Assembly: GCA_050251055.1 (NCBI GenBank)
Contig: JBFWNL010000001.1
Span: forward strand, 555,825-619,824
Length of the DNA: 64,000 nucleotides
Direction: 5' to 3'
Source of the DNA: Bacteriovoracia bacterium
GTDB taxonomy: Bacteria > Bdellovibrionota > UBA1018 > JBFWNL01
Of the stretch, positions 18,267 to 38,277 are shown one piece after another (positions within the stretch are counted from its first letter, which is position 1; the number at the start of each line of letters is the position of its first letter). The position numbers and the translations under genes were made by a program. The notes under the pieces are model-generated. The model made no database searches. It saw only the letters and a list, made by a program, of their open reading frames with translations, and was not told the origin of the DNA.

Positions 18267-18391
18267 GGATCGGTGGGGCAAAACAGGGCTATTGGGGGCA
18301 AGAGCAGTACCCCACCGATCCTCACGTGGCTGTCCCTTTCCTCCGAGATGGTTTCCGAAAAATCCGGAGGGGGAAGCAGTTCCCTCTCCGG
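18267..18391. other. Two strong intergenic stem-loops
   Basis: GGATCGGTGGGG (18267-18278) pairs perfectly with CCCCACCGATCC (18310-18321). CCGGAGGGGGAA (18364-18375) pairs with TTCCCTCTCCGG (18380-18391) and is followed by ATTTTT on the minus strand. Confidence 0.65.
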
Positions 18392-19027: not shown

Positions 19028-19479
19028 GCACACCCTACTCTCCCCGTCACCGCGGCCGCGAGGTCGCTTTTCAGTTTTTGTATCGCCTGGACCTGCTGAA
19101 CGGAAAACGCGGCGGCGCGGACGCCATCCCGCCGGGCTGGTCGGCGGAGCGCGCGCAGGAGCTGCGTACGCACATTGCGCACTTCGAAGTCCCCGCCGAC
19201 GTGGCCGAGTTCTCAAACCAGCTCGTGCAAGCCACGCTGACTCGGCTACCAGAGCTCGACGCTGCCATCGAAGGTGCCGGTTCGAGTTGGAAAGTCGCCC
19301 GCATGGCACTCGTGGACCGCAATCTCTTGCGCCTGGCTCTCGCCGAGACCTCCCTGGACACACCGGTAGCGGTCGTGATCAACGAGGCGGTGGAGCTCGC
19401 TAAGCAGTTCGGTACCGAAGAAACCCCTGGGTTCGTCAACGGGGTGCTCGATAAGCTCGTTAAGAGCAAGAGCGCGTAA
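19024..19479 (+). CDS. nusB: Transcription antitermination factor NusB
   Basis: RHRGREVAFQFLY, RMALVDRNLLRLA, VVINEAVELAKQFG, FVNGVLD. ATGA overlap with nrdR. Confidence 0.97.
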   Translation: MSTPYSPRHRGREVAFQFLYRLDLLNGKRGGADAIPPGWSAERAQELRTHIAHFEVPADVAEFSNQLVQATLTRLPELDAAIEGAGSSWKVARMALVDRNLLRLALAETSLDTPVAVVINEAVELAKQFGTEETPGFVNGVLDKLVKSKSA

Positions 19480-20052: not shown

Positions 20053-20423
20053 AACCTTCTTTCCTGAAGCAACTTGTCGCCCGCCTCTTGAGCCCGTCGG
20101 ACAAGTACGAGCTCACGAATGGCCGCGGTACTCCTTCGCCCATCGAATCGCTTCCCCTCCTCGATCGCCTCGAAACGCTGGTGAGTGGCAGCATCGAGAC
20201 CAAGGCCCGCACGCAAGACCTGGCGCGCCAGCTCCAGGCGAAATTCGCCGCGCAGGCGCAAAACCAGGCCGAAACCTTGGCCAGGGCACGCGCTGAGGCG
20301 CAGGCACGGGCCGAAGAAGCCGCCCTTCCCCCGCGGGTTACCACCCGCCAAAAGGAGTACGAACCCGCCCTCCGCGACGAAAGCGTCGTGCAGGCGCTGC
20401 TCCATTTACGTGAAAGGCTATGA
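20037..20423 (+). CDS. Hypothetical helical protein
   Basis: 3' part of ORF 19809..20423. TTG at 20037 has an AAAGGAG SD, and its stop overlaps the next ATG (ATGA). Confidence 0.6.
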   Translation: MSAPLKPSFLKQLVARLLSPSDKYELTNGRGTPSPIESLPLLDRLETLVSGSIETKARTQDLARQLQAKFAAQAQNQAETLARARAEAQARAEEAALPPRVTTRQKEYEPALRDESVVQALLHLRERL

Positions 20424-21097
20424 CCCGCGAGGCCCTGAAGTTTTCCAACGTCGCCGAGCGGTTCACCCTCGAAAATACGAGTCGATGGGACGACAGCGCC
20501 GCGCTCGCCGAGTGCTCCCTCTTGCGACTGGTGATCCTGCGCGACCTGTATCGCTATCTCCATGCTGAGCGCTCCAAGGTATTGGTGGAAGGATCCAAGA
20601 AAAGCGTGGACGATATCCGTGCGCTGCAGACCAGCTTGGAGGAGCTGCGCGGGCAAGACTTGCGCGGGCTCTCGCTTTCCGACGTCATCTCCCGGGCCAA
20701 AGCCGGCAAACCTTTGGACACCCCTCGCCGCCCCGCCGCCGAGTTGCTGCAGAAGATCGAGCGCGAGAAGCTGGAGCGCTACGACCGCAAGTGGGAATCC
20801 GCCTTGGCCGCCGAAGCCTTTCATTGCGGCTGGGGATTTTGGCACCTCGACGCCTGGGTGAAGGTCTCCACCGCCGAGGCGTTCCACGGCCACCTCAGCC
20901 GCTCGCTATGGCCGAAGGGCATCGTGCTCTTCGTGGAGGCTTCGCCGGGCAACAGCCTGGACAAGACGGATGAGCCGATCTGGAAAGGGCGCTGGGTGTG
21001 TACCCTCTCCCCTCAGAAAGACCCCAAGGCGACTCCTCTGCTGAGCATTCCCGGAATCTCTTCCCGACCCGACGAACCCCGGTGGAATCTACTATGA
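20420..21097 (+). CDS. Hypothetical protein (Trp-rich C-terminal half)
   Basis: 225-aa ORF with ATGA overlaps at both ends. Confidence 0.75.
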   Translation: MTREALKFSNVAERFTLENTSRWDDSAALAECSLLRLVILRDLYRYLHAERSKVLVEGSKKSVDDIRALQTSLEELRGQDLRGLSLSDVISRAKAGKPLDTPRRPAAELLQKIEREKLERYDRKWESALAAEAFHCGWGFWHLDAWVKVSTAEAFHGHLSRSLWPKGIVLFVEASPGNSLDKTDEPIWKGRWVCTLSPQKDPKATPLLSIPGISSRPDEPRWNLL

Positions 21098-21606
21098 AGC
21101 TTTGCGAGTTCCTCACCTTGCTTTTGCGGACGCAAGGTCGAGTCCTGCAAGAACTGCTAGCCACATGCGGGGAGGGGCGCCTAGCGCAACTGTTGCGGGA
21201 CAACGAAGTCACGGCGCGGATATCGGTGCAAGGACTTCAGCTCGTGCACGGCCCCATGTCTTACCAGGGACATGGCGAAGGCTTCGCGATGATCGAGCAG
21301 ACGGTGACCGACCTGGCGTTGCCGGAGGAAATCGAGTTTCACCTCTGGTCCTACCCGTTTTACCGGGCGTTTATCGAAAGCGAGCTGGGACTGGATTCCA
21401 CGATCCGCAATGACAAGGCGAACGAACTGTCGGCGCTCTTGGACGAGGCCATCGCCTCGGCCCATCATTGGGGTGAATGCCTGGTCCCGAAAGATGGGGA
21501 CGCGGCGCTTGCGCGAAAAGTCCAAGCCGTGGTCAGCCAAAACTACCTGCGCTTTCGGACGGATTTCCTGCGTAAAACCGGCGGTCGCGCGCTTAGCTCT
21601 CTTTAG
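21094..21606 (+). CDS. Hypothetical protein
   Basis: ORF 20998..21606. ATG 21094 (MKLCEFL) overlaps the upstream TGA. Confidence 0.7.
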   Translation: MKLCEFLTLLLRTQGRVLQELLATCGEGRLAQLLRDNEVTARISVQGLQLVHGPMSYQGHGEGFAMIEQTVTDLALPEEIEFHLWSYPFYRAFIESELGLDSTIRNDKANELSALLDEAIASAHHWGECLVPKDGDAALARKVQAVVSQNYLRFRTDFLRKTGGRALSSL

Positions 21607-23155
21607 CCAGCTTATGTTTTTCCAGAACTTTCCGTAACCCCTCGCGGCTCAAGCCAAGCAGCTTCGCCGCATGACTCTTATTGCCCTGGGTTTTCGCAAG
21701 CGCGATGCGCACCGCCTTTTTTTCCGCTTCATCTTTCGCCGCCTTCAGGGTCGTCACCTCACCCATCGACTCCTCGCTCGCTTCCCCTTCACTACCCGAG
21801 GCACCGATGGAGACCATCGACGCCGGGGTTGTCGGTTCGAGCTGAAAGTCCTGGGGAGAAAGCACATCGCGATCCCCGCTCAGAATGATCGCGCTTTCCA
21901 GCTTGTTCTGCAGCTGCCGGATATTTCCCGGCCACGGATAGGCCATGAGCTTGGCCAAGGCATCGGGGCTCAGCTTCTTCAAGCGCCGCGCGCGGCCCGC
22001 GAGCATTTTATTCAGGAGTGACTGGGAAAGGTCGCCAATATCGCCCGTGCGCTCGCGCAGAGCCGGAAGTCGGAAGCGGACGACGTTAATCCGGTAGTAA
22101 AGATCCTCGCGAAAACGCTGAGCGCGGACCATGCTCTCCAACTCACGGTTGGTCGCGGCCACGATCCGAAAGTCCACGGGCTTGGGCTTTTCGTCGGAAC
22201 CGACCGGAGTGACCGTCTTGTCCTGCAAAACGCGCAGGAGCTTGGCCTGCATGGAAAGCGGGAGCTCGCCGATTTCATCCAGAAAGAGCGTCCCCCCGTG
22301 GGCCATCTCGATCTTGCCCTTACGCGCGAACGTTCCCGTCGCCGCGCCCTTCGTCACCCCGAAGAGCTCGGCTTCGAACAGGCTCTCAGGGATGGCGGCG
22401 CAGTTCAGCGCGACGAAAGGGCTATTGCGGCGGGCGCTGCGCGAGTGCACCACCTTCGCCACGACTTCCTTGCCGGTACCGCTCTCCCCTTCGATTAAGA
22501 TGGAAGAATCGCTCTGCGCGAAGGCGGGTAGCTGATTGTAGAGTTCCTGCAAGAGACCGTTGGAAGAGCGCAGAACGAAGCTCTCGGTTTCCTGACCCCA
22601 GGTGCGCCGCTCCTGCTGGAGCGTGTTACTCACCTCGGTGAGATTCTCGATCGTGCGCCGATGCTCGAGCGCCACCGCCGCAAAGAGCGCAAGCACTTGC
22701 AGGATCTGCAGATCGTCTTCCTCGAACCGTCCGCGCTTGGAGTTCAAAATTTGTATCGCGCCCAAGTTGCGACCGGAAGGCGCCCGCATCGGCACGCAGA
22801 GAATCGTCTCGGTTCGGTACTGGGTGACGGCATCCACCTTTGGAAAAAACCGCGGATCCGAATGAGCGTCGTTGATGATGATCGGCAACGCCGTCTTGAA
22901 GACGTGCCCCACAATGCCCTGGTCAGCGGCGATCCTGATCTCTTTTCCGCCCATGCCGGTGGCTACCAGGGATGTGAGCTGCATGTCCGCCAGGGGGGCT
23001 TCCTTCTCGGGGGCTAGAAACACCGACCCGCGATCCCCATGGGTGAGCTCAATAGCCGCATCTAAGATGCGGGAAACCAGCGCCGTCCGCTCCAGACGGT
23101 CGAAGAAGGCCGTACAGACCTGCAGAAGCATGGGGAGGATCTGAGACGGTTCCAT
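21593..23155 (-). CDS. GAF-domain sigma54-type enhancer-binding protein (GAF-AAA+-Fis HTH)
   Basis: N-terminal GAF domain, GESGTGKE Walker A, LFLDEIGEL Walker B, FREDLYYR, WPGNIRQL, and GNKSHAAKLLGLSR HTH. The GAFTGA loop reads GAATGT. Confidence 0.95.
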   Translation of the reverse strand: MEPSQILPMLLQVCTAFFDRLERTALVSRILDAAIELTHGDRGSVFLAPEKEAPLADMQLTSLVATGMGGKEIRIAADQGIVGHVFKTALPIIINDAHSDPRFFPKVDAVTQYRTETILCVPMRAPSGRNLGAIQILNSKRGRFEEDDLQILQVLALFAAVALEHRRTIENLTEVSNTLQQERRTWGQETESFVLRSSNGLLQELYNQLPAFAQSDSSILIEGESGTGKEVVAKVVHSRSARRNSPFVALNCAAIPESLFEAELFGVTKGAATGTFARKGKIEMAHGGTLFLDEIGELPLSMQAKLLRVLQDKTVTPVGSDEKPKPVDFRIVAATNRELESMVRAQRFREDLYYRINVVRFRLPALRERTGDIGDLSQSLLNKMLAGRARRLKKLSPDALAKLMAYPWPGNIRQLQNKLESAIILSGDRDVLSPQDFQLEPTTPASMVSIGASGSEGEASEESMGEVTTLKAAKDEAEKKAVRIALAKTQGNKSHAAKLLGLSREGLRKVLEKHKLAKES

Positions 23156-23185
23156 AGCGTTTTAATCGGTCTAAAGGGGCAAAAC

Positions 23186-23284
23186 TATAACTTTTGTTGG
23201 CAGTTTGAGTTAATTTCAGAAGGTAGTGCCAAAAAAAGTGCCATTCTGCACTAAAAGTTGGCAGTTTGACGCAACTGAAGTTGC
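23186..23284. promoter_or_regulatory. Putative upstream activator (UAS) boxes
   Basis: Exact 13-mer GTTGGCAGTTTGA at 23196-23208 and 23257-23269. Palindrome GCAACT-ga-AGTTGC at 23271-23284. AGTGCCA occurs twice at 23225-23243. Confidence 0.65.
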
Positions 23285-23323
23285 CCTCTCGAGCTTTTCC
23301 CCTATCTTTTCAACCACCCAAAG

Positions 23324-23340
23324 TTGGCACCGCGCTTGCT
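23324..23340 (+). promoter_or_regulatory. Sigma54 -24/-12 promoter
   Basis: TTGGCAC-cgcgc-TTGCT is a perfect match to TGGCAC-N5-TTGCW (GG 23326-27, GC 23338-39), divergent from an enhancer-binding protein gene. Confidence 0.88.
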
Positions 23341-23350
23341 CTATCTAGTC

Positions 23351-23475
23351 AGTGTGGGGAATGCAACGGGGACCTCAGAGTGGTGGGAGCTGAGGCCCTA
23401 AGCAACCCAAAAAGTTTGTCCTCCAAAACCCTAAAAACCCTCTCATGGGAGCCGGGCCATTTGGCCCGGCTCCAA
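23351..23475 (+). ncRNA. Candidate sigma54-dependent small RNA (no known family recognised)
   Basis: Begins at the expected +1 of the sigma54 promoter. Long interrupted 5' stem-loop (23355-23409), unpaired A/C-rich linker with TCCTCC and 2x AAAACCCT, and a 3' GC-rich hairpin GGAGCCGGGCC-attt-GGCCCGGCTCC (23448-23473). No credible ORF. Confidence 0.6.
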
Positions 23476-23542
23476 TAAGATTACGGGCCAAATTCGGGGT
23501 TAACCCTGTCCAAATCCAGGCAATCCAAGTAAAAATCAAAGC

Positions 23543-24544
23543 ATGAACGCTGCGGCAAAACCGATGGCGCCTCCGTCATCCATTCTAGTTACCGGCGCGG
23601 CCGGCTTTATCGGCACACGCCTCGTCGCACGCCTGCAATCCCTGCCCAAGCCCGCGCCCTTGATCAGCGTGGATCGTCGTGCGCACTTTGCCACGCGCAC
23701 CGAGCACGGGGGCACGGACTACGGACAAATCGTCGACCGTGACGAGCTCGAAGCCTGGCTCGCGAAAGAAAAGCCCGCGCTCAAGGCCGTGATTCACCTG
23801 GGCGCCTGCACCGACACCACGAATTTAGACGAAGCCTACCAGAAACGCATGAACCTGCAGTATTCGCAGATGCTTTGGAATCATTGCACGCGCGCGAAAA
23901 CCCCCTTCATTTACGCCAGCAGCGCCGCTACCTACGGCGAAGGAAATTTAGGCTATAGCGACGACGAAGGCCTGATCCCCATGTTGAAGCCCCTAAATCC
24001 CTACGGCGAATCCAAGCGCCTCTTTGATCTTTGGGCGATTGAACAAGAAAAAGCCGGCAAAACACCCCCCAGCTGGAGCGGGTTCAAGTTCTTCAACGTC
24101 TACGGGTTCGGTGAGCGCCACAAAGGCAAGATGGCCAGCGTCGTGCTCCATGCTTTCGATCAAATCCAGGCGAGCGGTCGCGTGAAGCTCTTCAAGAGCC
24201 ACCGCGAAGGCATCGCGCACGGCCAACAAAAGCGGGACTTCATTTACGTGGAAGACGTCGTCGACGTTTTACTCTACGCGATGAACCGCCCGATCCCACG
24301 CGGGATCTACAACTTAGGCAGCGGGCAAGCCCGCTCGTTTTTAGATCTCGTCCGCGCGACCTTCCGGGCAATGGGACGCTCGGAGCAAATCGAATTCATC
24401 GATACGCCATTGGAACTGCGCGAACGCTACCAGTACTTCACCGAAGCGAAGATGTTCAAGCTGGAGAGCCTGGGCTACGACAAGCCCTTTACCCCACTCG
24501 AAGAAGGCGTGGCTGCCACGGTGGCGCGCCTCGGCGCTCGCTAG
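23543..24544 (+). CDS. hldD: ADP-L-glycero-D-manno-heptose 6-epimerase
   Basis: VTGAAGFIG, HLGACTDT, YASSAATYG, PLNPYGESK, FFNVYG..E.HKGKMAS, RDFIYVED, YQYFTEA. Confidence 0.95.
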   Translation: MNAAAKPMAPPSSILVTGAAGFIGTRLVARLQSLPKPAPLISVDRRAHFATRTEHGGTDYGQIVDRDELEAWLAKEKPALKAVIHLGACTDTTNLDEAYQKRMNLQYSQMLWNHCTRAKTPFIYASSAATYGEGNLGYSDDEGLIPMLKPLNPYGESKRLFDLWAIEQEKAGKTPPSWSGFKFFNVYGFGERHKGKMASVVLHAFDQIQASGRVKLFKSHREGIAHGQQKRDFIYVEDVVDVLLYAMNRPIPRGIYNLGSGQARSFLDLVRATFRAMGRSEQIEFIDTPLELRERYQYFTEAKMFKLESLGYDKPFTPLEEGVAATVARLGAR

Positions 24545-24778
24545 TCCATCCGGGCCAATCGACGCAACACCCCATAGCTGACTCCTGAACGCGGTTTTTC
24601 GGCAATTTCATTGTCCGTTTCCCGGTCTTTCGATATACCCAATCCTCATTTCATTTCGGCATCTGAGTTCGGCAGTGGGGCCCTCGACGCAGTTCTTTTC
24701 GCCTTTGAAACCCCTGTCCCGCGCGCGTTTTAAATAAATCGGAACTCGCCTACCCGCGAGTCCGCAAGGAGACCGGTC

Positions 24779-26239
24779 ATGCAAAAAAATTATATCAATA
24801 GTGAGTGGATTGATTCGCTCGGTAAAGAGAAGGTCGAAATCATCAACCCCGCCACCGGCAAGGTGATCGATCACTGCCCCCTCGGCACTAAAGAAGATGT
24901 CAACCGCGCGGTCGAAGCCGCCGCGAAAGCTTTCCCGATGTGGCGGCAGACCCCGCCCACGGATCGCGTACAGCCCCTCTTCCGTCTGAAGATGCTGCTC
25001 GAAGAGAATCAAGAAGCGCTCGCCCGCTGCCTCACGCAAGAGCACGGCAAGACGCTCGTTGAAGCCCGCGGCAGCATCCGTCGCGGCATTCAAATGGTCG
25101 AAACTGCGTGCGGCATCCCCACCCTGATGATGGGGCAGGTACTCGAAGACATCGCGCCCGGCATCGACAGCCAAGCCGTACGCCGTCCGATGGGCGTTTT
25201 CACTGCGATCACGCCTTCGAACTTTCCCGCCATGGTTCCGTTCTGGTTCTGGCCCTTCGCGGTCGCCTCGGGCAACACATTCGTGCTGAAGCCCAGCGAG
25301 CGCGTACCCATGACCCAGACGATGATCATGGACCTGATCACGAAGGCGAAGTTTCCACCGGGCGTGATCAACGTCGTGCAAGGCGGACGCGAAGTCGTCG
25401 ACGCGCTCTGCACCCACCCAAAAATCCAAGGCGTATCGTTCGTGGGCTCCACGCCGGTCGCCAAGCACGTCTACGTCACCGCTTCGGCCGCGGGTAAGCG
25501 CGTGCAATCGCTCGGCGGCGCGAAAAACTTCATGGTCGTCATGCCGGATGCCGTCATGGACAAAGCCGTTTCGACCGCGCTCGAATCCATTATCGGTTGC
25601 GCGGGCCAACGTTGCCTCGCCGGTTCCGTGATCCTGGCCGTGGGTGACTGCTACGACAAGGTCGCCGACCAGATCGTGCGCTTCGCGCGCGACGTGAACG
25701 TGGGCGACGGGCTCGACCCCCGCACGCAGATGGGTCCAGTGATCTCGGCCGCCTCGAAAGAGCGCGTGAAAGGATTGATCGCGGGCGCCGTGAAAGAAGG
25801 CGGCAAGCTCTTGCTCGACGGACGTGAAAACGTCGATCAAATGCCGGGCTACTTCCTGCGCCCCTCCGTCATTGGCGAAGTAAAACCCGAAATGACGATC
25901 GCCAAGGAAGAAGTTTTCGGACCCGTGGTTTGCCTGGCCCGAGTGAAGACACTCGACGAAGCGATCACCTGGCTCAATAGCTCGAACTACGCGAACACGA
26001 CCACGCTCTTTACGACGAACGGAGCGGCCGCCCGCAAGTTCACCTACGAGGTGGAGCCGAGCATGATCGGAATCAACATTGGCGTTCCCGCGCCCATGTC
26101 GTTTTTCTCATTCGGCGGCGCCAAGGACTCGTTCTTCGGCGACGTGAAGGCCCACGGGCGCGCGTCGATGGATTTTTACACCGACACCAAAACCACGATC
26201 TTCCGCTGGCTGAGCGATTCCAGCATTTGGAGCAAGTAA
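24779..26239 (+). CDS. mmsA: CoA-acylating (methyl)malonate-semialdehyde dehydrogenase
   Basis: ITPSNFPAMVP, KPSERVP, SFVGST, GKRVQSLGGAKN, GQRCLA, EEVFGPV, MIGINIGVPAP. Confidence 0.94.
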   Translation: MQKNYINSEWIDSLGKEKVEIINPATGKVIDHCPLGTKEDVNRAVEAAAKAFPMWRQTPPTDRVQPLFRLKMLLEENQEALARCLTQEHGKTLVEARGSIRRGIQMVETACGIPTLMMGQVLEDIAPGIDSQAVRRPMGVFTAITPSNFPAMVPFWFWPFAVASGNTFVLKPSERVPMTQTMIMDLITKAKFPPGVINVVQGGREVVDALCTHPKIQGVSFVGSTPVAKHVYVTASAAGKRVQSLGGAKNFMVVMPDAVMDKAVSTALESIIGCAGQRCLAGSVILAVGDCYDKVADQIVRFARDVNVGDGLDPRTQMGPVISAASKERVKGLIAGAVKEGGKLLLDGRENVDQMPGYFLRPSVIGEVKPEMTIAKEEVFGPVVCLARVKTLDEAITWLNSSNYANTTTLFTTNGAAARKFTYEVEPSMIGINIGVPAPMSFFSFGGAKDSFFGDVKAHGRASMDFYTDTKTTIFRWLSDSSIWSK

Positions 26240-27646
26240 ATGAAAACCCTACTCGTCAAAAACGGCCTGGTCGTTACCGCCACCGATCAATACGAAGCCG
26301 ACATTTACGTCGTGGGCGAAAAGATCCAGACGATCGGTAAGGGGCTGGAAGCCCAGTTAATAAAAGCCGATCAAGTGCCAGATCAAGTTATTGACGCCAA
26401 GGGCCGCTACGTGTTCCCGGGCGGGATCGACGCCCACACGCACATGGATCTGCCCTTCATGGGGACATCTTCGAGCGACGACTTCGAGAGCGGTACGATG
26501 GCGGGCCTGCACGGCGGTACCACGACCATCATCGACTTCGCGATTCAGACCCAAGGCGATAGCTTGGCCGCCGCTTTGAACACCTGGCACGAAAAGGCCG
26601 ACGGCAAGGCCGTGGGTGACTACGCCTTCCACCTCGCGATTACGGATCTGAACGAAAAGACGAAGGCCGAGATTAAGACTTGCGTGGAAAAAGGCGTGAC
26701 GTCCTTTAAGACCTTCATGGCCTATAAAGGCGCCTTGATGATCGACGACCGCCAGATGGTCGCGCTCATGGCCGAAGTTTCCAAGCAAGGCGGCATGGTC
26801 ACAACCCACGCCGAAAACGGCGATATGATCGATAACCTTATCGCCCAGAATCGCCTGAACGGGAATCTGACCCCGAAATACCACGCGCTCTCGCGCCCCG
26901 AAATCGCCGAAGCCGAAGCAACCGGCCGCATTTCCGATATCGCGTTCCAAGGCGGGCATCCGCTCTACATCGTGCACATGACCTGTGAAGGCGCGCTGAA
27001 CCGCATCCGCGAGAACACGAAACGGGGCCAGAAGGTCTTCGTCGAGACCTGCGTGCAATACCTGCTCCTGGATGACACTTTGTATTCGCGCGAGAACTTC
27101 GAAGGCTCCAAGTGGGTAATGAGCCCACCGCTCCGCAAGCCCAAAGACCAAGCCGCGCTCTGGGCCGCGCTCAACCAAGGCCTCGTGCAGGTCGTGGCCA
27201 CCGATCATTGCCCGTTCTGCATGGACCAGAAGCGCATGGGTGAAAAAGACTTCTCGAAGATCCCGAACGGCGCGCCCGGCGTCGAAAACCGTCTGGAGCT
27301 CATGTTCTCGGAAGGCGTGGGCAAGGGCCGCATTTCGCTCAATAAGTTCGTCGACGTGAATTGCACGGCGCCGGCCAAGATCTTCGGTCTCTTCCCGCGC
27401 AAGGGAACGATCGCCGTGGGTTCGGACGCGGATCTTGTGATCTTCGACCCGAACGAGACTCATACGTTATCGGTAAAGAACCAGCACATGAAGTGTGACT
27501 ACTCGGCTTATGAGGGCTGGAACGTGCGCGGAAAGGTGAAGACCACCATCCTGCGCGGTACCGTGGCCGTGGACAACGGTAAAGCACATGTCGGCAAGGG
27601 TTTCGGGAAATACCTCCCACGTGCCAAGCTGAGCGCCAACATTTAG
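26240..27646 (+). CDS. hydA: Dihydropyrimidinase / D-hydantoinase
   Basis: PGGIDAHTH, GGTTTIIDF, SFKTFMAY, HAENG, MSPPLR, ATDHCPF. Confidence 0.96.
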   Translation: MKTLLVKNGLVVTATDQYEADIYVVGEKIQTIGKGLEAQLIKADQVPDQVIDAKGRYVFPGGIDAHTHMDLPFMGTSSSDDFESGTMAGLHGGTTTIIDFAIQTQGDSLAAALNTWHEKADGKAVGDYAFHLAITDLNEKTKAEIKTCVEKGVTSFKTFMAYKGALMIDDRQMVALMAEVSKQGGMVTTHAENGDMIDNLIAQNRLNGNLTPKYHALSRPEIAEAEATGRISDIAFQGGHPLYIVHMTCEGALNRIRENTKRGQKVFVETCVQYLLLDDTLYSRENFEGSKWVMSPPLRKPKDQAALWAALNQGLVQVVATDHCPFCMDQKRMGEKDFSKIPNGAPGVENRLELMFSEGVGKGRISLNKFVDVNCTAPAKIFGLFPRKGTIAVGSDADLVIFDPNETHTLSVKNQHMKCDYSAYEGWNVRGKVKTTILRGTVAVDNGKAHVGKGFGKYLPRAKLSANI

Positions 27647-27670
27647 CCCTAACATTCAAAGGAAATCAAA

Positions 27671-28537
27671 ATGTCGAATATCGTAAAAGCCGGCTTGATT
27701 CAGATCGCGAACAAAATCGATACGAAAGAACCTTGCGAAAAACATCGCAATGCCATGATCGAAGCCCACATTCCCTATATCGAGAAAGCGGGCAAACAGG
27801 GCGTGAAGATGCTTTGCTTCCAGGAAATTTTCACCGGCCCCTACTTCTGCCCGTCGCAAGACGTAAAGTGGTATGGCCTAGCCGAGGAAATCCCGAACGG
27901 CCCAACGACCAAGCTCATGCAAGAGTACGCGAAGAAGTACAATATGGTCATCGTCGTGCCGATCTACGAACAAGAGATGACGGGCGTGTACTATAATACC
28001 GCGGCCGTGATCGACGCCGACGGCAAGTACTTGGGTAAGTACCGCAAGAACCACATCCCGCAGGTGGCCGGATTTTGGGAAAAGTTCTTCTTCAAGCCGG
28101 GCAACATGGGCTACCCCGTGTTCAAGACCCAGTACGGCAACGTCGGCGTCTACATCTGCTACGACCGCCACTTCCCGGACGGAGCCCGCTGCCTGGGCCT
28201 CAGCGGCGCCGAGATCGTATTCAACCCGTCGGCAACCGTCGCTGGCCTCTCGCAGTATCTCTGGGAGATCGAGCAACCCGCCCACGCCGTGGCCAACGGC
28301 TACTTCGTCGGCGCGATCAACCGCATCGGCCGCGAGCAGCCTTGGAACATCGGTGAGTTCTACGGGTCTTCCTATTTCGTCAGCCCGCGCGGCAAGATCG
28401 TCGCGCAGGCCTCGAAAGACAAAGACGAACTGCTGGTATCCGATCTCAACTTCGACGAGATCAAGGAAGTGCGCGACCTCTGGCAGTTTTATCGGGATCG
28501 GCGGCCGGAAACTTACGGGCAGTTGACGGCGTTGTGA
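27671..28537 (+). CDS. Beta-ureidopropionase (nitrilase superfamily)
   Basis: E-K-C triad (CFQEIF, KYRKNHIP, YICYDRHFP), FWEKFFFKPGN, FYRDRRPETY, located in a hydA operon. Confidence 0.92.
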   Translation: MSNIVKAGLIQIANKIDTKEPCEKHRNAMIEAHIPYIEKAGKQGVKMLCFQEIFTGPYFCPSQDVKWYGLAEEIPNGPTTKLMQEYAKKYNMVIVVPIYEQEMTGVYYNTAAVIDADGKYLGKYRKNHIPQVAGFWEKFFFKPGNMGYPVFKTQYGNVGVYICYDRHFPDGARCLGLSGAEIVFNPSATVAGLSQYLWEIEQPAHAVANGYFVGAINRIGREQPWNIGEFYGSSYFVSPRGKIVAQASKDKDELLVSDLNFDEIKEVRDLWQFYRDRRPETYGQLTAL

Positions 28538-28547
28538 CGAGTCAGAT

Positions 28548-28590
28548 TTCAGTTTCGGTTCGAGTTCCAGTTTCAGTTTAGTTTTCAGGT
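28548..28590. repeat. Degenerate hexanucleotide tandem repeat in an intergenic spacer
   Basis: ttcagt ttcggt tcgagt tccagt ttcagt tt(t)agt tttcag, about 7 units of TTCAGT-like sequence. Confidence 0.6.
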
Positions 28591-28606
28591 AGAGAAAGGT
28601 TTGCCT

Positions 28607-29911
28607 ATGCGTAAAAACGAAGAGATCTTGGCTATCCGTAAGAAATACATGCTGCCCACCGCCCTTCACTACCACAAAGAGCCGTTGCAGCTGGTGCGGG
28701 CGCAAGGCGAATACGTTTGGGACGAAAACGGGCGCCAGTACCTGGATGCGATCGGCGGCATTGTTTGCATCTCGGCCGGGCATAATCACCCCAAGATTAA
28801 AGCCCAGATGCGCAAGATGCTCGATAGCGATACGCCCCAACACACGAGCTTACTCTATTTGAACGAAGAGCCGGCCCTACTCGCGGAGAAAATGGCGGAA
28901 GTCGCGCCTCCAGAAGTGAAGCGCCTCGCGATGACGAACTCGGGCTCGGAAGCCAACGAACTCGCGTTCATGGCTGCTCGCCACGCCACCGGTGAAACCA
29001 TGGTCGTGAACCTGCGACATAGCTACCACGGCGGAACTTCCGGGACGTTAGCTAGCTGCGGACACCACACTTGGCGCTTCCGCGCCCAGCCCGTAACCGC
29101 GACCACCTCGGTCGTGGCCCCATACTGCTACCGCTGCCCGTTCGGAAAAACCCCGGATGGTTGTACCTTTGAGTGCGCCCGCCAGGTCGAATCCACGATC
29201 CAAACCAGCACCCACGGAAAGATCGCGGCCTTCATCGCCGAACCCGTCATGGGCGTCGGCGGCTTCATCGATCCCCCCAAGGAATACTTCCAGGAAGTGG
29301 TGAAGATCGTCCATAACTACGGCGGCAAGTACATCAGCGACGAAGTGCAAACCGGCGCGGGACGTTGCGGCGCCGAATTCTTCGCCACGAACGAACTGGG
29401 CATCGACGCCGACATGGTCACTATGGCCAAGGGCCTAGGCAACGGGGCCGCCATCGGCGCCGTGCTCATGAAATCCGACATCGCCGACACGATGGCGGGC
29501 AAACTCTACTTCAACACGTTCGGCGGCGACCCATACCAAACCATGCAGGCGCGGATGACCATTGAGATCATCCAGGAAGAGAAACTCATCGAGAACGCCA
29601 AGGCGATGGGCGCGCTCCTCAAGGACGGCTTCAAGGAGATGATGAAGACGCACGAGCTCATCGGCGACGTCCGCGGACGGGGGCTGATGATGGGTATCGA
29701 GCTCGTCAGGGATCGCAAGACCAAGGAATACGCCACCGCCGAGACGGCGGCGATCATGGACATTTGCCGCGAAAAGGGCTTACTCCTGGGTAAAGGCGGG
29801 CTTTTCGGGAACGTACTGCGGATCGCACCGCCGCTGACGATTAACCGCGACCAGGTGAAGGTCATGCTGACTATCCTGGATCAGGCGTTTCACTCCATGA
29901 AGAAACTTTAG
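28607..29911 (+). CDS. Class III PLP aminotransferase (beta-alanine/AGXT2-like)
   Basis: NSGSEANE, SYHG, FIAEP, SDEVQTG, TMAKGLGNG, NTFGG. Context indicates beta-alanine/3-aminoisobutyrate transamination. Confidence 0.9.
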   Translation: MRKNEEILAIRKKYMLPTALHYHKEPLQLVRAQGEYVWDENGRQYLDAIGGIVCISAGHNHPKIKAQMRKMLDSDTPQHTSLLYLNEEPALLAEKMAEVAPPEVKRLAMTNSGSEANELAFMAARHATGETMVVNLRHSYHGGTSGTLASCGHHTWRFRAQPVTATTSVVAPYCYRCPFGKTPDGCTFECARQVESTIQTSTHGKIAAFIAEPVMGVGGFIDPPKEYFQEVVKIVHNYGGKYISDEVQTGAGRCGAEFFATNELGIDADMVTMAKGLGNGAAIGAVLMKSDIADTMAGKLYFNTFGGDPYQTMQARMTIEIIQEEKLIENAKAMGALLKDGFKEMMKTHELIGDVRGRGLMMGIELVRDRKTKEYATAETAAIMDICREKGLLLGKGGLFGNVLRIAPPLTINRDQVKVMLTILDQAFHSMKKL

Positions 29912-31595: not shown

Positions 31596-32558
31596 TCAAT
31601 TCGCCTGGGCGCGCACGCCTTCGCATTCGGGCGGAAGCTTGGGCATCTTGAAGGCTTCCGCCTTACGTTCTGGGCTCGCGGTCTTTTGGCGGGCCTCATC
31701 CGAGAACCACCAATCTAACTCGGAACCGCAGCCGTCTCCCGGCGGGATCGCCTCCTGTTTTTTGCAAAGGGGGCTACCTTCCGGGCAGCGCAAGCGGACA
31801 TGAAAGTGATCATGATGCTCGAACCAGGGGCGGACCTTGGCCATCCATTTGCGTTCGGATTTTTTTCCCCGCGTCGCCTGGCAGAGCGCGCGCTTGACGG
31901 CGGCATGGACGAAGATTCGCTCCACTTCCGGAGCCTGGGCCGCGTACTTGAGAATCTTCACATGCTTGGGGGTCCAAAGCTTCTTGAGCACTTTGTAGGT
32001 TTTGAGATTCACCACGCTCTTGGCGCCCCAATCCTCACGCTCCTGCGCCGTCAGCTGGGGACGATTCGCCTCGGGCGTAAGCCAAAACCAGATATCGATA
32101 TCGAGCCCGCTCTGATGGCTCATGTGCCCCACCAGCGTGGGACCACCGCGCACGAGGTTCAGGTTACCCAGGAGCAGCGTTCCCAACTTGTCGCGATGGA
32201 CTTGCTTGCCCAGGTTTTTCACATAGTGGATCAACGTCGGATGCCCGAAGCGCTTTCCCGTCGTCGGGTGCATGACGTGGTAACCTGGCCCCGAGAGCGG
32301 TAGCTCTTCGGAACCTACGATGCAGCCGGCGGTGTAGTTTCCGATGGCTTGGGCCGCGCCTTTCGCGGGCGTCGTGAACTTGGGCCAGGGATTGTCGATC
32401 AGCGGCGGAGGGGAAGGCTCAGGCACGGGGCCGGTCGCCGAGTCGGGACCGGTTGGGCTAGCCGCACCGGGCTCCGTCGTAGCGCTCGCGCCGATCGAAG
32501 CGGCCAGGAGAAGAACACTTAAAATCGAGATATCTACCGCTCGACTTCGAGGTTTCAG
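31596..32558 (-). CDS. mepA: Penicillin-insensitive murein endopeptidase (probable CTG start)
   Basis: AIGNYTAGC, HMSHQSGLDIDIWF, ERIFV, KVRPWFEHHDHFHVRLRCP, GDGC. The frame stays open upstream of the track start (32426) and encodes a signal peptide from CTG 32558. Confidence 0.9.
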   Translation of the reverse strand: MKPRSRAVDISILSVLLLAASIGASATTEPGAASPTGPDSATGPVPEPSPPPLIDNPWPKFTTPAKGAAQAIGNYTAGCIVGSEELPLSGPGYHVMHPTTGKRFGHPTLIHYVKNLGKQVHRDKLGTLLLGNLNLVRGGPTLVGHMSHQSGLDIDIWFWLTPEANRPQLTAQEREDWGAKSVVNLKTYKVLKKLWTPKHVKILKYAAQAPEVERIFVHAAVKRALCQATRGKKSERKWMAKVRPWFEHHDHFHVRLRCPEGSPLCKKQEAIPPGDGCGSELDWWFSDEARQKTASPERKAEAFKMPKLPPECEGVRAQAN

Positions 32559-33835
32559 CGCGTGCTCCGCATGGGATTATTCGGATGCTGGGTCCAATTC
32601 AAATAGGGCTTGCCGGTTTCCTGCGGGACCATCGTGATGCAATCGGGAACCGGGCAAACCATGTGGCAAAGATTACAACCCACGCACTCGGACTCGATGA
32701 TCTCGTACTTACGGCCCAGCTTCGCGGCGCCCGTACGCTGAGCGCTGATCGCCTGGTGGGAGGTGTCTTCGCAGGCGATGTAGCAAAGCCCGCACCCAAT
32801 GCACTTATCTTCGTCGATGTGGGCGATCGTCTTGTAATTCAGATCCAGATACTGCCAATCGGTGACGTTCGGAATGGCGCGGCCAATGAAGTCCTCGAGC
32901 TTGCGGTACCCCTTCTGGTCCATCCAGTTGCCCAGGCCATCGATCATGTCATCGACGATCTTAAAACCATAGTGCATGGCCGCCGTGCAGACCTGCACGC
33001 TGTAGGAGCCTAAAGCCATGAACTCGGCGGCGTCCCGCCAGGTGGAAATTCCGCCGATCCCCGAGATCGGCAAGCCCTTGGTCTCGGGATCGCGCGCGAT
33101 CTCCGACACCATATTGAGCGCGATGGGCTTAACGGCCGGGCCGCAATATCCGCCGTGCGTCCCCTTCCCGCCCACGGTGGGCTGGGGGGCCATGACATCG
33201 AGATCGACGGCGGTAATCGAATTAATGGTATTAATCAGCGAAACGCCGTCCGCCCCGCCGGCCTTCGCCGCGCGGGCGGGCTTGCGCACGTCGGAAATAT
33301 TGGGAGTGAGCTTCACGAGCACCGGCATGCGCGTGTGGGCCTTGCACCAGCGCGTGACCATTTCCACGTATTCCGGGACCTGACCCACGGCGGATCCCAT
33401 ACCCCGCTCGCTCATGCCGTGCGGACAGCCGAAGTTGAGCTCGATGCCGTCGGCGTTCGTGTCTTCTAGCTTCTTGAGGATCGTTTTCCAGCTCTCCTCG
33501 TTGCAAGGAACCATCAGCGAAATCACGAGCGCCCGGTCCGGCCACTCGCGCTTGGTTTCCTTGATTTCCTGCAAGTTCACGTCGAACGGACGGTCGGTAA
33601 TGAGCTCGATGTTATTGAGCCCCATCACCCGCTGGCCATTGAGGTCGACCGACCCGTAGCGGGAGCTGACGTTCACCACCGGCGGATCTTCACCCAACGT
33701 CTTCCAAACCACGCCGCCCCACCCGGCCTGGAAGGCGCGCACGACATTATACTTCTTGTCCGTCGGTGGCGCGGAAGCCAGCCAAAACGGGTTCGGCGAT
33801 TTGATGCCCGCCATATTGCAGCGTAGATCAGCCAT
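32555..33835 (-). CDS. preA: NAD-dependent dihydropyrimidine dehydrogenase subunit PreA
   Basis: NPFWLASAPPT, LNNIELITDR, ELNFGCPHGMSERGMG, KLTPN, two C-terminal 4Fe-4S motifs. Start reassigned to ATG 33835. Confidence 0.96.
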   Translation of the reverse strand: MADLRCNMAGIKSPNPFWLASAPPTDKKYNVVRAFQAGWGGVVWKTLGEDPPVVNVSSRYGSVDLNGQRVMGLNNIELITDRPFDVNLQEIKETKREWPDRALVISLMVPCNEESWKTILKKLEDTNADGIELNFGCPHGMSERGMGSAVGQVPEYVEMVTRWCKAHTRMPVLVKLTPNISDVRKPARAAKAGGADGVSLINTINSITAVDLDVMAPQPTVGGKGTHGGYCGPAVKPIALNMVSEIARDPETKGLPISGIGGISTWRDAAEFMALGSYSVQVCTAAMHYGFKIVDDMIDGLGNWMDQKGYRKLEDFIGRAIPNVTDWQYLDLNYKTIAHIDEDKCIGCGLCYIACEDTSHQAISAQRTGAAKLGRKYEIIESECVGCNLCHMVCPVPDCITMVPQETGKPYLNWTQHPNNPMRSTR

Positions 33836-35231
33836 GGATTTCCTCGCCATCGATCGCGTTGTGGCCCCGGCGCATCTCCAGCGGCACCTCCTGGCCAGTG
33901 AGGTCCAGGTGAATCGCGTGCGCGGCAAGCTTACCGTCTTGCACGGCGTTCACTGTCAGCGCGCCGGCATTGATGCAGTCGCCGCCCGCGTAAACCCCGG
34001 GTAGCGACGTCTGTCGCCGATTATTCACAACGATTCGGCCCTTCCCGATCTGTAGCTCTTCGGTCCCTTCGCCGAGCTTAGCGGGCACCAACACCTGGCC
34101 GATCGCCTTGAAGACCTGATCCACCGGGATTTCGAACGTGTCGCCGGTACCCACGAGCTTCGCGCCGTCCAGCCGTGTCTGCTCGAAGCGGATCACGGAG
34201 ACGCCCTGAGCATCGCCCACCAAGGCTTCGGGCTTAGCCCAGTAACGGATCAAGACGCCGTTGTTCTTTGCCAACTCTTGCTCGTACCAGGTAGCGCCCA
34301 TGGCGTCGGGACCGCGGCGGTAAACCAGGGTCACGGCTTCGGCTCCCAGACGTTTCATCTGCACGGCAATATCGATCGCCGTGTTGCCGCCGCCGATCAC
34401 GACCACGCGTTTACCTACTTTGATCTTGGCTAAATCTTCCACTTGGCGAAGTTCCGCGATCGCGTCGACCGCATCCACCACGCCGTCCATGAGCTCGCCC
34501 TCGAGCGAGAGCGCGTTCGTGCCGGCCAAGCCGACGCCTAAAAACACGGCGTCGAAATCCTTGCGCAGCCGCTTGAGGCTCAAATCCCGTCCGAGCGCCT
34601 TGCCGGTCTCGAGCTCGATGCCGCCCACGCTCAGGATGAACTGAAGTTCGCGCTGGGCGAAATCATCGACCATCTTGTAGGCAGCCAAGCCGTATTCATT
34701 CAAGCCGCCGGCCTTCGGCTGGGCTTCGAAAACCTTTACTTGATGTCCTAAGAGCGCCAGGCGATGCGCGCACGCCATGCCAGCAGGGCCGGCGCCCACG
34801 ACCGCCACGCGCTTGCCCGTCGTGGCGTGGCGGGTAAACGGCTGCACGCGCGCATCAAAAAGCCAATCCGTCGCGTGCCGCTGCAACAAGCCGATGGTCA
34901 CGGGTTTTTCTTCGGAATGATTGCGTACACAGGCGCTCTCGCAAAGCGTTTCCACCGGACAGACGCGCGCGCAGGTGCCGCCCATGATATTTTCGGAAAG
35001 GATGTCCACGGCGGCGCCCTTTAAGTTGCCGGTCGAGATCTTACGGATGAAACTCGGGATATTGATCCCCGTCGGGCAGGCCTGGATGCAGGGTGCATCG
35101 TGGCAGAAGAAACACCGGCTCGCTTCAATGGCCGCAGTCTTACCTTCCAGCGGCGCATGGAGATCTTCGAAGTTTTTACGATAGTCCTCGCGGGTCAAAC
35201 GTCCCGCGGCGATGTCATGCTGGTGTTTCAT
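33828..35231 (-). CDS. preT: Dihydropyrimidine dehydrogenase subunit PreT (GltD-like flavoprotein)
   Basis: RCFFCHDAPCIQACPT, CARVCP, GAGPAG, GGGNTAID. Start reassigned to ATG 35231, and it overlaps preA. Confidence 0.94.
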   Translation of the reverse strand: MKHQHDIAAGRLTREDYRKNFEDLHAPLEGKTAAIEASRCFFCHDAPCIQACPTGINIPSFIRKISTGNLKGAAVDILSENIMGGTCARVCPVETLCESACVRNHSEEKPVTIGLLQRHATDWLFDARVQPFTRHATTGKRVAVVGAGPAGMACAHRLALLGHQVKVFEAQPKAGGLNEYGLAAYKMVDDFAQRELQFILSVGGIELETGKALGRDLSLKRLRKDFDAVFLGVGLAGTNALSLEGELMDGVVDAVDAIAELRQVEDLAKIKVGKRVVVIGGGNTAIDIAVQMKRLGAEAVTLVYRRGPDAMGATWYEQELAKNNGVLIRYWAKPEALVGDAQGVSVIRFEQTRLDGAKLVGTGDTFEIPVDQVFKAIGQVLVPAKLGEGTEELQIGKGRIVVNNRRQTSLPGVYAGGDCINAGALTVNAVQDGKLAAHAIHLDLTGQEVPLEMRRGHNAIDGEEIHG

Positions 35232-35333
35232 AAGGGAAAGAGACACTTTTCCCTGTCTGAAAGCGTTGGTCAAGCGCCAAAAGCCTGAATTGGAGCCCCA
35301 AAACGGGGACTCAATCACGCCGCCTGATTCAGC

Positions 35334-36436: not shown

Positions 36437-36568
36437 AAAAAGAGTTCCCCTTAGATATTAGGATATGTCTTTTCGGGAAAACTACAATGATTTACTCCGC
36501 ATCGCTCCGAACGCGGCGCATAACACTCATGCAGCATTCCCTTCAGCGTAGATTCTCTGACACTATCA

Positions 36569-36605
36569 TTGCCAGCCAACCCCTCGCCCCTTTATAAAAA
36601 GGGGG
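36569..36605 (+). promoter_or_regulatory. Putative promoter with overlapping palindrome upstream of the DUF692 gene
   Basis: TTGCCA (36569-74)-N18-TATAAA (36593-98). Inverted repeat CCCCTTT-ataa-AAAGGGG at 36587-36604. Confidence 0.4.
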
Positions 36606-37460
36606 ATGCTGCAAGTTGGCGTGGGTCTGCGCAAAGACCACTACGAACACATTTTCGAACACCGACCCCAAGTGGGGTGGTTTGAAGCCATCAGCGAAAA
36701 CTTCATGGGTATTCATTCCGCACCCACGGGCGGTCGCCCGTTATGGACGCTCGAACGCATCCGGCGGGATTACCCCGTCGTGCTGCACGGGGTTTCACTT
36801 TCGATCGGTTCGGCCGATCCGGTGGACGCGGCTTATCTCAAACGCCTGGCCGATCTCTACGAGCGCGTGCAACCCGCCTGGGTCTCCGATCATCTTTGCT
36901 GGACCGGCGTGGATGGCGAAAATCTCCACGACCTGCTTCCGCTTCCTTTCACCCGGGAGGCGCTCGATCACGTAGTCACGAAGGTGAGCCAGGTCCAGAC
37001 CGCGCTCAAACGACGAATCCTACTAGAAAACGTTTCTAGCTACGTCACGTTTCCAGATTCCGAGATGACCGAGTGGGAGTTCCTGGCCGAAATCGCGCGC
37101 CGCTCAGGCTGCGGGATCCTGCTCGATCTGAACAATGTTTTCGTCAGCGCGAAGAACCACGGATTCTCCGCAAAGGAATTCATCCAGGGTATCCCCACCG
37201 GGTCCGTGGGCCAGTTTCATTTGGCCGGACATTCGGATCGCGGCTCGTTCCTGTTCGATACCCACGATCATCCGGTCTGCGACGAAGTTTGGGCCCTTTA
37301 TCGAGAGGCATTAAAGAAGTTCGGCCCCGTACCCACGCTCATCGAATGGGATGACCGCATCCCTCCCTTCCCGGAGCTCATGCGGGAAGCCTCCAAGGCC
37401 GAGACCATCTGGCGAACGCAATTCCCCATGCAGGAGGCTCCCCATGTCTCGCCTCATTGA
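36606..37460 (+). CDS. DUF692 family multinuclear non-heme iron oxidative enzyme (MNIO, BufB-like)
   Basis: GVGLR, FEAISENF, LHGVSLSIGS, SDHLCW, DLLPLP, LLENVSSY, LLDLNN, HLAGH, DTHD, LIEWD. Confidence 0.96.
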   Translation: MLQVGVGLRKDHYEHIFEHRPQVGWFEAISENFMGIHSAPTGGRPLWTLERIRRDYPVVLHGVSLSIGSADPVDAAYLKRLADLYERVQPAWVSDHLCWTGVDGENLHDLLPLPFTREALDHVVTKVSQVQTALKRRILLENVSSYVTFPDSEMTEWEFLAEIARRSGCGILLDLNNVFVSAKNHGFSAKEFIQGIPTGSVGQFHLAGHSDRGSFLFDTHDHPVCDEVWALYREALKKFGPVPTLIEWDDRIPPFPELMREASKAETIWRTQFPMQEAPHVSPH

Positions 37461-38277
37461 AACCCAGCGCTGGGTGAAATGGGCGATGACCTACCAGGCA
37501 CCACTTACAAAGCTACCCGCCCGAGGCCCCGGAAATCAAAGTGCGACGGATGTCGTACGCGCCTTTCGGGGAGGAATTCCTATCGACGGCCTCGCCGTTT
37601 ATCAAGACGGCTACTTCGCTCGACTCGGAGATGCGCTCAAGGACGATTTCGAATGCGTTCACAAGCTCCTGGGCGAGCAAAACTTCGCGCTCCTAGGCAT
37701 GGCGTACCTCGATCAACATCCGTCCCATAGCTTCACCCTGGGTGATATCGGGGCGGATTTCATCGCCTTCGTCACACGGCATCCGCTCGCCGAAGCGCGT
37801 CCCGTGCTCCTGGACGCAGCCCGGCTCTGCACCGCCGTCAACCGTACTTTCTACACCCCTTACCTGCCGCGGTTTAACCCAGCCCGGCTCGGGGAAGTTC
37901 CCGCCGAAGCCTGGGCATCGGCCACGCTTTCGCTGGATCCTTCGGTGTGTGTGCTCGAATCTCGGTGGATGCTCGATCGACTTTGGGAAGCCCGACGCGA
38001 AGCCGAACCCTATTCCGACGCGTGGCTCGCCCCCGCGGAGACTCCCGGCCACTATCTCATTTTCCGCCACGACTCCACTGGCCAAGACCACGGCGGTTTC
38101 CCAGTGGTAACTCGATTACTTCTCGCTCAGGCTCGTTTCCTGGAGGAAATCGCCCGGGGCGCTTCCTTGGGCGACGCGTGCGAAGCGATCGATGCCGCGG
38201 GTGAAACCGAGATCATGGAGTGGTTCACCGCCTGGGTGCAAACCGGCGTCATCCGCAGCGTGCACTTTTCGCATTAA
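37444..38277 (+). CDS. DUF2063-type MNIO partner protein (BufC/HvfC-like)
   Basis: GLAVYQDGYFARLGDALKDDF...LLGEQNF...YLDQHPS..FTLGDIGADF pattern. ATG 37444 overlaps the end of DUF692. Confidence 0.85.
   Translation: MSRLIETQRWVKWAMTYQAPLTKLPARGPGNQSATDVVRAFRGGIPIDGLAVYQDGYFARLGDALKDDFECVHKLLGEQNFALLGMAYLDQHPSHSFTLGDIGADFIAFVTRHPLAEARPVLLDAARLCTAVNRTFYTPYLPRFNPARLGEVPAEAWASATLSLDPSVCVLESRWMLDRLWEARREAEPYSDAWLAPAETPGHYLIFRHDSTGQDHGGFPVVTRLLLAQARFLEEIARGASLGDACEAIDAAGETEIMEWFTAWVQTGVIRSVHFSH

Follow-up and report, generated by a model that had tools for sequence, protein, structure and literature searches.

The locus lies in a 64-kb stretch of DNA with a G+C content of about 59%, which was analysed at its full length and is called the window below. 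A minus-strand regulator gene (21593-23155) and the plus-strand gene hldD (23543-24544) are separated by a gap of 387 nt (23156-23542). The start of the regulator gene is 170 bp from a predicted sigma-54 promoter, with an enhancer-like repeat array in between. As judged from codon-position G+C, the regulator gene stands alone and is convergent with plus-strand ORFs at 20420-21606. Elsewhere in the window, two tandem S8 subtilase genes (41052-44823, minus strand) encode proteins of 586 and 587 aa, both with Peptidase_S8 at residues 192-448. The features of the locus are as follows.

21593-23155, minus strand: regulator gene, 520 aa (Pfam: GAF, Sigma54_activat, AAA_lid_14, HTH_8)
23184-23213, minus strand: sigma-70-like promoter TTAACT-18-TATAGT facing the regulator gene (9/12 consensus match)
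23190-23269, no strand assigned: enhancer-like repeat array of clustered GTTGGCA/TGCCA repeats (putative protein binding)
23325-23339, plus strand: sigma-54 -24/-12 element TGGCAC-N5-TTGC (exact consensus match)
23351-23409, plus strand: predicted transcript start (about 23351, from promoter geometry) and nested 5' stem-loop (fold)
23410-23446, plus strand: open stretch rich in C and poor in G, containing TCCTCC and AAAACCCT twice (sequence, fold)
23448-23473, plus strand: 11-bp GC hairpin without U tract (fold, hairpin scan)
23445-23546, plus strand: 33-codon upstream ORF, probably not translated, its stop overlapping the hldD ATG as ATGA
23543-24544, plus strand: hldD, ADP-glyceromanno-heptose 6-epimerase (TIGR02197)
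24779-29911, plus strand: catabolic genes after hldD, possibly co-transcribed (TIGR01722 and TIGR02033 for the first two)

First, we assessed the promoter. The element TGGCACCGCGCTTGC at 23325-23339 is the sole exact match to TGGCAC-N5-TTGC on both strands of the 64 kb, and the GG-N10-GC core of the sigma-54 promoter class is present within it. One exact match was observed against 0.09 expected, with at least one match in 9 of 100 shuffles. When one mismatch was allowed, 4 sigma-54-type matches were found in the window against 3.8 expected; since this count is at chance level, only the exact match carries weight. The original prediction of a perfect -24/-12 promoter thus holds for an element that is both exact and unique in the window, and in sequence a sigma-54-type promoter could hardly match better than 23325-23339 does. 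A spacing of 12 nt, measured from the C of the -12 GC, places the predicted transcript start (+1) near 23351. The sigma factor gene rpoN was not found in a Pfam scan of 53 ORFs of the window; B. bacteriovorus HD100 has sigma-54 and nine regular activators according to the supplement of PMC3162934. Two near-consensus sites were also observed. On the minus strand, TGGCAC-N5-TTGG at 23229-23243 faces the regulator gene, its -12 GC reading GG; it may be no more than a component of the array of TGCCA repeats. In 36558-38277, a site with one mismatch, TGACAC-N5-TTGC (36558-36572), precedes a gene pair in which an MbnB/TglH/ChrH-family (DUF692) gene is paired with a DUF2063 gene, as is typical of peptide-modification clusters.

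Upstream of the promoter, three of the four GTTGGCA copies of the window are found at 23196, 23257 and 23323, spaced by 61 and 66 bp, and the third copy is the -24 element itself. The array also contains a 13-nt dyad centred near -136, ACTTTTGTTGGCA (23190-23202) / TGCCAAAAAAAGT (23227-23239), a TGCCA-N15-TGGCA arrangement at 23239-23263 (centre about -100), and a direct repeat, GTTGGCAGTTTGA, at 23196-23208 and 23257-23269. With five TGGCA/TGCCA in about 130 bp, this is the densest 150-nt stretch of the window. The sigma-70-like promoter that faces the regulator gene (minus strand, 23213 to 23184) shares positions with the first GTTGGCA repeat; it is the sole promoter-like match in 23100-24850, and is a consensus match only. 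Judged by its sequence, the GTTGGCA/TGCCA array 70-160 bp upstream of the promoter looks like an enhancer, and by analogy the layout is the classic one in which an enhancer-dependent promoter is paired with a divergent activator gene under autoregulation.

In order to assess the predicted transcript, we folded 23351-23475 and obtained an MFE of -51.8 kcal/mol. Shuffles gave -43.2 +/- 3.8 (z -2.26), and 4 of 200 were as low. The stems UGGG/CCCA, UGC/GCA, GGGG/CCCU and CCUCAG/CUGAGG are present in the predicted fold, so that all stems of the nested 5' structure named earlier recur there. The C-rich open stretch that had been described is likewise present in the sequence, with TCCTCC at 23419-23424 and AAAACCCT at 23425-23432 and 23434-23441; the 40 nt of 23401-23440 contain 14 C and 3 G. 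It is followed by the hairpin GGAGCCGGGCC-ATTT-GGCCCGGCTCC at 23448-23473, in which 10 of the 11 pairs are G-C, the most among window hairpins with a stem of at least 8. Folded alone, this hairpin has -27.5 kcal/mol and its centroid is the hairpin by itself. A T/U run is absent from its tail AATAAGATTACG and the terminator scan leaves it uncalled, which bears out the description of an 11-bp GC hairpin lacking a U tract. The 3' half of the hairpin (23459-23468) also pairs with 23484-23493 in 10 of 10 positions; this pairing is much weaker than the main hairpin and hints, at the level of sequence, at a switchable leader.

The stretch of about 125 nt had been called non-coding, and we found no coding signature in the small ORFs overlapping 23351-23475. 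A 70-aa ORF has G+C of 0.56/0.51/0.54 at codon positions 1/2/3, compared to about 0.60/0.42/0.75 in six reference genes. The 33-codon ORF (23445-23546) starts at the foot of the hairpin; because no Shine-Dalgarno precedes it and its GC3 is 0.44, against about 0.75 in real genes, it is probably untranslated. Both third-position values (0.54 and 0.44) are below those of real genes, in agreement with the earlier claim. Rfam 15 gave zero matches at gathering score over the whole window, and in 23150-23600 the 7 matches with E up to 10 owed their scores to the hairpins, each of them falling far short of gathering, so that the Rfam check returned no described family. Scans for tRNA, tmRNA and tandem repeats were also negative. 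The sequence elements of the locus are real and not due to chance, an assessment made for the elements apart from the TCCTCC and AAAACCCT motifs.

We then compared the hairpin with others in the window. Hairpins followed by T5, of the canonical terminator type, are found at the gene ends 16514-16498, 19052-19067, 52213-52198 and 4680-4664. Terminator-like sites numbered 34, 27 and 29 compared to 25.3, 24.1 and 23.4 in shuffles, a slight excess (60 of the 64 kb were scanned). By its sequence, the hairpin at 23448-23473 is non-canonical as a terminator. Three further strong GC hairpins of 10-12 bp without a U tract are intergenic (954-981, 18364-18391 and 52159-52132) and located 30-115 nt upstream of gene starts. 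As three more such hairpins stand before genes, they look like a common feature of 5' regions here. The three are dissimilar in sequence, and one of them lies 115 nt before nrdR (18506).

The identity of the next gene as hldD, as originally given, is upheld by TIGR02197 (336.2 bits, cut-off 274.6). Among the matches listed, its homologues are 60-68% identical, and the named ones are ADP-glyceromanno-heptose 6-epimerase. The gene is on the same strand as the predicted transcript, and its start is 192 nt from the predicted +1 and 70 nt past the hairpin. Neither candidate hldD ATG (23543, 23564) is preceded by a Shine-Dalgarno, and the promoter scan found no plus-strand sigma-70-type promoter in 23352-23542. 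By eye, a TAAAAAT not called by that scan can be seen 7-8 nt before the hldD ATG, and it could be the -10 box of a leaderless hldD transcript. On the plus strand after hldD are genes for a malonate/methylmalonate-semialdehyde dehydrogenase (MMSDH; TIGR01722, 546 bits compared to a cut-off of 448.5) and a dihydropyrimidinase (TIGR02033, 597 bits compared to 393.25), together with carbamoyl-amidase-like and aminotransferase genes that are below every cut-off. Genes for PreT/PreA-like dihydropyrimidine dehydrogenase subunits were observed at 32555-35318 on the minus strand. Together, the genes of 24779-29911 (plus) and 32555-35318 (minus) resemble a nearly complete set for reductive pyrimidine/beta-alanine catabolism, and a nitrogen-related sigma-54 target is plausible for this cluster; hldD is placed between the sigma-54 promoter and the set. 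The original prediction had considered hldD an unlikely sigma-54 target. This conflicts with a comparative study in which sigma-54 is linked to the biosynthesis of LPS and the cell exterior (PMC3162934).

The arrangement of these genes was compared with that in related organisms. Bdellovibrionales bacterium GWB1_55_8 has a regulator homologue (OFZ20416.1, 59% identical) and an HldD (OFZ22033.1) on different contigs and 1617 accession numbers apart, so the regulator-hldD pairing is not conserved in this one related genome checked. Contig sizes were also used as an indirect measure of synteny, one too weak to carry a conclusion. Of 28 regulator-homologue contigs of at least 7 kb, none is equal in size to any of the 119 HldD or 119 MMSDH homologue contigs among the matches listed, which is a weak negative. 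Two sizes shared by the regulator and HldD lists were rejected: contigs of 1948 nt are too short for both genes, and those of 3680 nt come from different sources (JGI and NCBI). Regulator and MMSDH homologue contigs have no common size among the matches listed, and HldD and MMSDH contigs of 5256 nt were again of different sources. An HldD homologue (P0185) and a semialdehyde-dehydrogenase homologue (P0314) are each on a contig of 4946 nt, both from JGI/IMG; they may be on one contig, in which case the hldD-mmsA adjacency would recur elsewhere.

The regulator itself was next examined for the features of an enhancer-binding protein (EBP). Pfam assigns Sigma54_activat (PF00158, 218 bits), GAF at residues 24-163, AAA_lid_14, and HTH_8 at 476-513. 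Walker A (GESGTGKE, from residue 223) and Walker B (LFLDEIGE, from 290) are both intact. The protein therefore has the AAA+ domain with Walker A/B, the N-terminal sensor and the C-terminal Fis-type HTH by which EBPs are recognised, and its description as a GAF-bearing protein of EBP type is correct by domains. No NCBIfam equivalog cut-off was reached, the best being nifA with 334 bits compared to 528.85. The sigma-54 contact loop at residues 270-275 reads GAATGT and not GAFTGA, and aligns without gaps to the GAFTGA of NifA and ZraR structure chains. Ala thus occupies the position of Phe, where an EBP is expected to have Phe or Tyr (position 3 of GAFTGA).

This substitution is shared. Ala is present in all 55 of the best 55 homologues (P0001-P0055, at least 43% identity), with GAATG[TV] in 52 and GAATD[TV] in 3, and in homologues beyond these the loop is back to GAFTGA, GAYTGA or GSFTGA. 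The named homologues are from Bdellovibrionales, Pseudobdellovibrionaceae, Bdellovibrionota and Bdellovibrio svalbardensis (44-59% identity). Otherwise the AAA+ domain is intact and conserved across the GAATGT clade. A search for related loci with the regulator retrieved 80 loci, all of them paralogous activators with at most 48% identity and mostly matching the AAA+ part only. Of the 69 contact-loop motifs in these loci, one has Ala at position 3 (GIATGV, in locus L001), and a sigma-54-like site with fewer than two mismatches is absent at that locus. According to Francke et al. 2011 (PMC3162934), the Phe of GAFTGA is replaceable only by Tyr, and the supplement of that study places a B. bacteriovorus HD100 protein (GI 42523371, GAATG_T) under 'inactivated EBPs by small change'; there is no other GAATG entry in the accessible part of the supplementary files. 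A survey of 2025 left out proteins without GAFTGA, as far as its accessible text describes (PMC12316311). Our search of the literature on Bdellovibrio sRNAs, sigma-54 and the regulator returned nothing on the locus or the clade beyond the 2011 supplement (PMC3162934).

The original prediction had paired the RNA with its own activator. The part of this claim that stands is the adjoining gene of EBP type with its domains intact; that it is an activator is doubtful, given the GAATGT loop and the B. bacteriovorus relative filed as inactivated. With Ala in place of the sigma-54-contacting Phe, this regulator may or may not switch on the sigma-54 promoter; the intact, clade-conserved Walker A/B and AAA+ domain argue for a working ATPase. 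A whole clade has Ala in place of a supposedly essential Phe and was set aside by surveys as inactive, and here one of its members is found beside a perfect promoter. The regulator and the promoter are a natural test case for an exception to the GAFTGA rule.

Considering the above, our preferred reading, held tentatively and at somewhat less than even confidence, is that the transcribed region forms the 5' leader of hldD, from which a stable fragment may arise. On sequence grounds, a leader is somewhat more likely than a free-standing small RNA. The enhancer-dependent sigma-54 promoter at 23325-23339 would fire rightwards at about 23351. The first 125 nt or so would be non-coding and would form the nested 5' stem, the C-rich open stretch and the very stable GC hairpin. 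The transcript would presumably read through into hldD, for which it would be a 192-nt leader, and perhaps on into the beta-alanine/pyrimidine genes behind it. The hairpin would serve as a stabilising, pausing or processing structure and not as a canonical terminator, and a stable short RNA could be cut from the leader or prematurely ended within it. The divergent GAF/AAA+/HTH protein would probably bind the repeats, and its own sigma-70-like promoter, overlapping a repeat, would give autoregulation. In this scheme we infer from the sequence the transcript start, the 3' end, the read-through into hldD, the binding to the repeats and the role of the regulator.

We favour a leader because hldD shares the strand of the transcript and starts 192 nt after +1, the DNA in between having yielded no plus-strand sigma-70-type promoter, and because the promoter is exact where 0.09 matches would be expected and has a repeat array at enhancer distance. 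The tail of the hairpin lacks a T run while T5 terminators exist at other gene ends, three other U-less hairpins precede genes, and the region has no coding signature; these also favour a leader, as does the reported link of sigma-54 to LPS and cell-exterior biosynthesis (PMC3162934). Against a leader, the hairpin is the most GC-rich of the window, and its position would suit the 3' end of an sRNA of usual size. The pairing of regulator and hldD is not conserved in GWB1_55_8, and the absence of size-sharing regulator, HldD and MMSDH contigs among the matches listed adds a weak negative. The lack of a Shine-Dalgarno before hldD, together with the TAAAAAT as its possible leaderless -10 box, also counts against a leader. 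Finally, for eight other sigma-54-type sites in the 80 loci, a small sample with crude gene calls, the distance to the next ORF of at least 100 aa is 26-104 nt in six cases and 510 and 701 nt in the remaining two, so that 192 nt exceeds six of the eight. If the region is only a leader, the locus would be a sigma-54 unit of the ordinary kind whose 5' UTR is long and structured, and the interest would be in hldD and pyrimidine/beta-alanine genes under sigma-54 in a Bdellovibrio-like organism.

The strongest alternative, which we nevertheless regard as unlikely, is a free-standing, sigma-54-dependent, trans-acting sRNA of about 125 nt, from 23351 to about 23475, with hldD having a promoter of its own. 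Its open stretch (CCUCC, and AAAACCCU twice) would pair with ribosome-binding sites of target mRNAs, and its 3' end at the GC hairpin would arise from non-canonical termination, or from Rho-dependent termination downstream followed by trimming back. The size, the 5' stem, the open C-rich stretch and the strong 3' hairpin match the usual layout of an sRNA, and the C-rich 40 nt (14 C, 3 G) may resemble a Rho loading site. Many genes of the window have a GGAG-type Shine-Dalgarno, which could pair with CCUCC. The unconserved regulator-hldD pairing in GWB1_55_8 and an hldD that lacks a Shine-Dalgarno and may be leaderless would also fit an independent RNA. However, the hairpin has no U tract, though the genome has canonical terminators, and hldD begins only 70 nt past it with no sigma-70-type promoter found between. 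There is no Rfam match, and a second copy of the 387-nt intergenic region was found neither in the window nor in the 80 fetched loci. The proposed check of the C-rich seed against targets was run on local sequences, the open stretch being compared with 49 translation-start regions of the window, and gave no support: the best pairing was -27.1 kcal/mol, a value reached by 25% of 200 shuffles (-25.5 +/- 2.6). Moreover, most sigma-54 promoters adjoining activator genes drive mRNAs. Of the small RNA originally proposed, then, the promoter and the structured, non-coding character stand; a discrete RNA is not established, as there is no canonical terminator and hldD follows after 70 nt. The lifestyle switch that had also been suggested is a speculative role for such an RNA. 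The precedent on which the proposal drew is real: Pxr, an RNA of 108 nt with its own sigma-54 promoter, is encoded beside the activator gene nla19 (PMC5568312). A discrete sRNA here would add a Bdellovibrionota case to the few sigma-54 sRNAs adjoining activator genes.

A further reading, which we consider improbable, is that TGGCAC...TTGC is one more operator-like copy of GTTGGCA and no working sigma-54 promoter under this regulator, which would act as its sigma-70-dependent relatives TyrR, DhaR, HupR and VpsR do. In a variant of this reading, the regulator is a repressor or modulator on the -24 element, and any sigma-54 firing is through another activator. The GAATGT loop in place of GAFTGA, with Ala in all of the best 55 homologues, points in this direction, as do the filing of GI 42523371 as an inactivated EBP and the rule that only Tyr can replace the Phe (PMC3162934). 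In addition, the repeat CAC..AAAGTTGGCA contains the -24 element within its third copy. On the other hand, a TTGC at exactly N5 is unlikely for a mere operator, and a -12 element is missing from both other GTTGGCA copies. The AAA+ domain, with its two Walker motifs, is intact and clade-conserved, the repeat array upstream of a -24/-12 element is the classic enhancer-dependent layout, and B. bacteriovorus has sigma-54 with nine regular activators (PMC3162934). What probability remains is left to a genuine promoter whose product or conditions are other than those considered here. Cutting across these readings is a bolder combination, to which we give very little credence: a free-standing sRNA of the Pxr type as the cargo of a Bdellovibrionota-specific GAATGT clade, whose members would either activate without the Phe or be repressors or modulators of ATPase type. 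If true, either mode would mean that an enhancer-dependent promoter can be operated in a novel manner.

Several known systems can be compared to this locus. Qrr1 beside luxO in Vibrio, GlmY with GlrR in E. coli and CrcZ after cbrB in Pseudomonas are sigma-54-dependent sRNAs, the Qrr sRNAs being dependent on both LuxO and sigma-54. These three have canonical terminators, belong to conserved families, and are associated with activators having a regular GAFTGA. The predicted RNA here is likewise encoded next to an activator-type gene, but it matched no Rfam family, even at E up to 10. The likeness to Pxr, PxrR and Nla19 of Myxococcus consists in a short structured non-coding RNA in intergenic DNA next to an activator gene. 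Pxr has three stem-loops and apparently its own sigma-54 promoter, and its inferred ancestor has -57.5 kcal/mol (PMC5568312). However, Pxr is downstream of nla19, whereas the predicted RNA here is divergent from the regulator, and Pxr was detected by Northern blot and is conserved across myxobacteria (PMC5568312), whereas the present RNA is a prediction from sequence. The negative Rfam result does not bear on a relation to Pxr. For strain HD100, PMC3627812 gives eight attack-phase sRNAs by coordinate in its accessible part.

For the promoter layout, the closest comparison was with PexR and ahpC/katB, in which a GAF activator has dyads upstream of a -24/-12 element and its own sigma-70-type promoter overlaps the sites (PMC12754779). 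Repeated dyads, a GAF sensor and a regulator's sigma-70-type promoter over the repeats are common to both. The differences are the length (192 nt) and high degree of structure of the leader at this locus, and a regulator that lacks the Phe of GAFTGA. As PexR has a regular GAFTGA and different repeats (CACCG-n6-CGGTG, compared to GTTGGCA/TGCCA here), it was rejected as a relative and serves as an architectural comparison only (PMC12754779). Finally, TyrR, DhaR, HupR and VpsR are EBP-like proteins without a working GAFTGA that act at sigma-70 promoters (PMC3162934). The regulator resembles them in keeping the AAA+ sigma-54-interaction fold with an altered contact loop, and it has the GAATG-T loop in common with B. 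bacteriovorus GI 42523371 (PMC3162934). It differs from TyrR, DhaR, HupR and VpsR in that it adjoins a perfect sigma-54 promoter.
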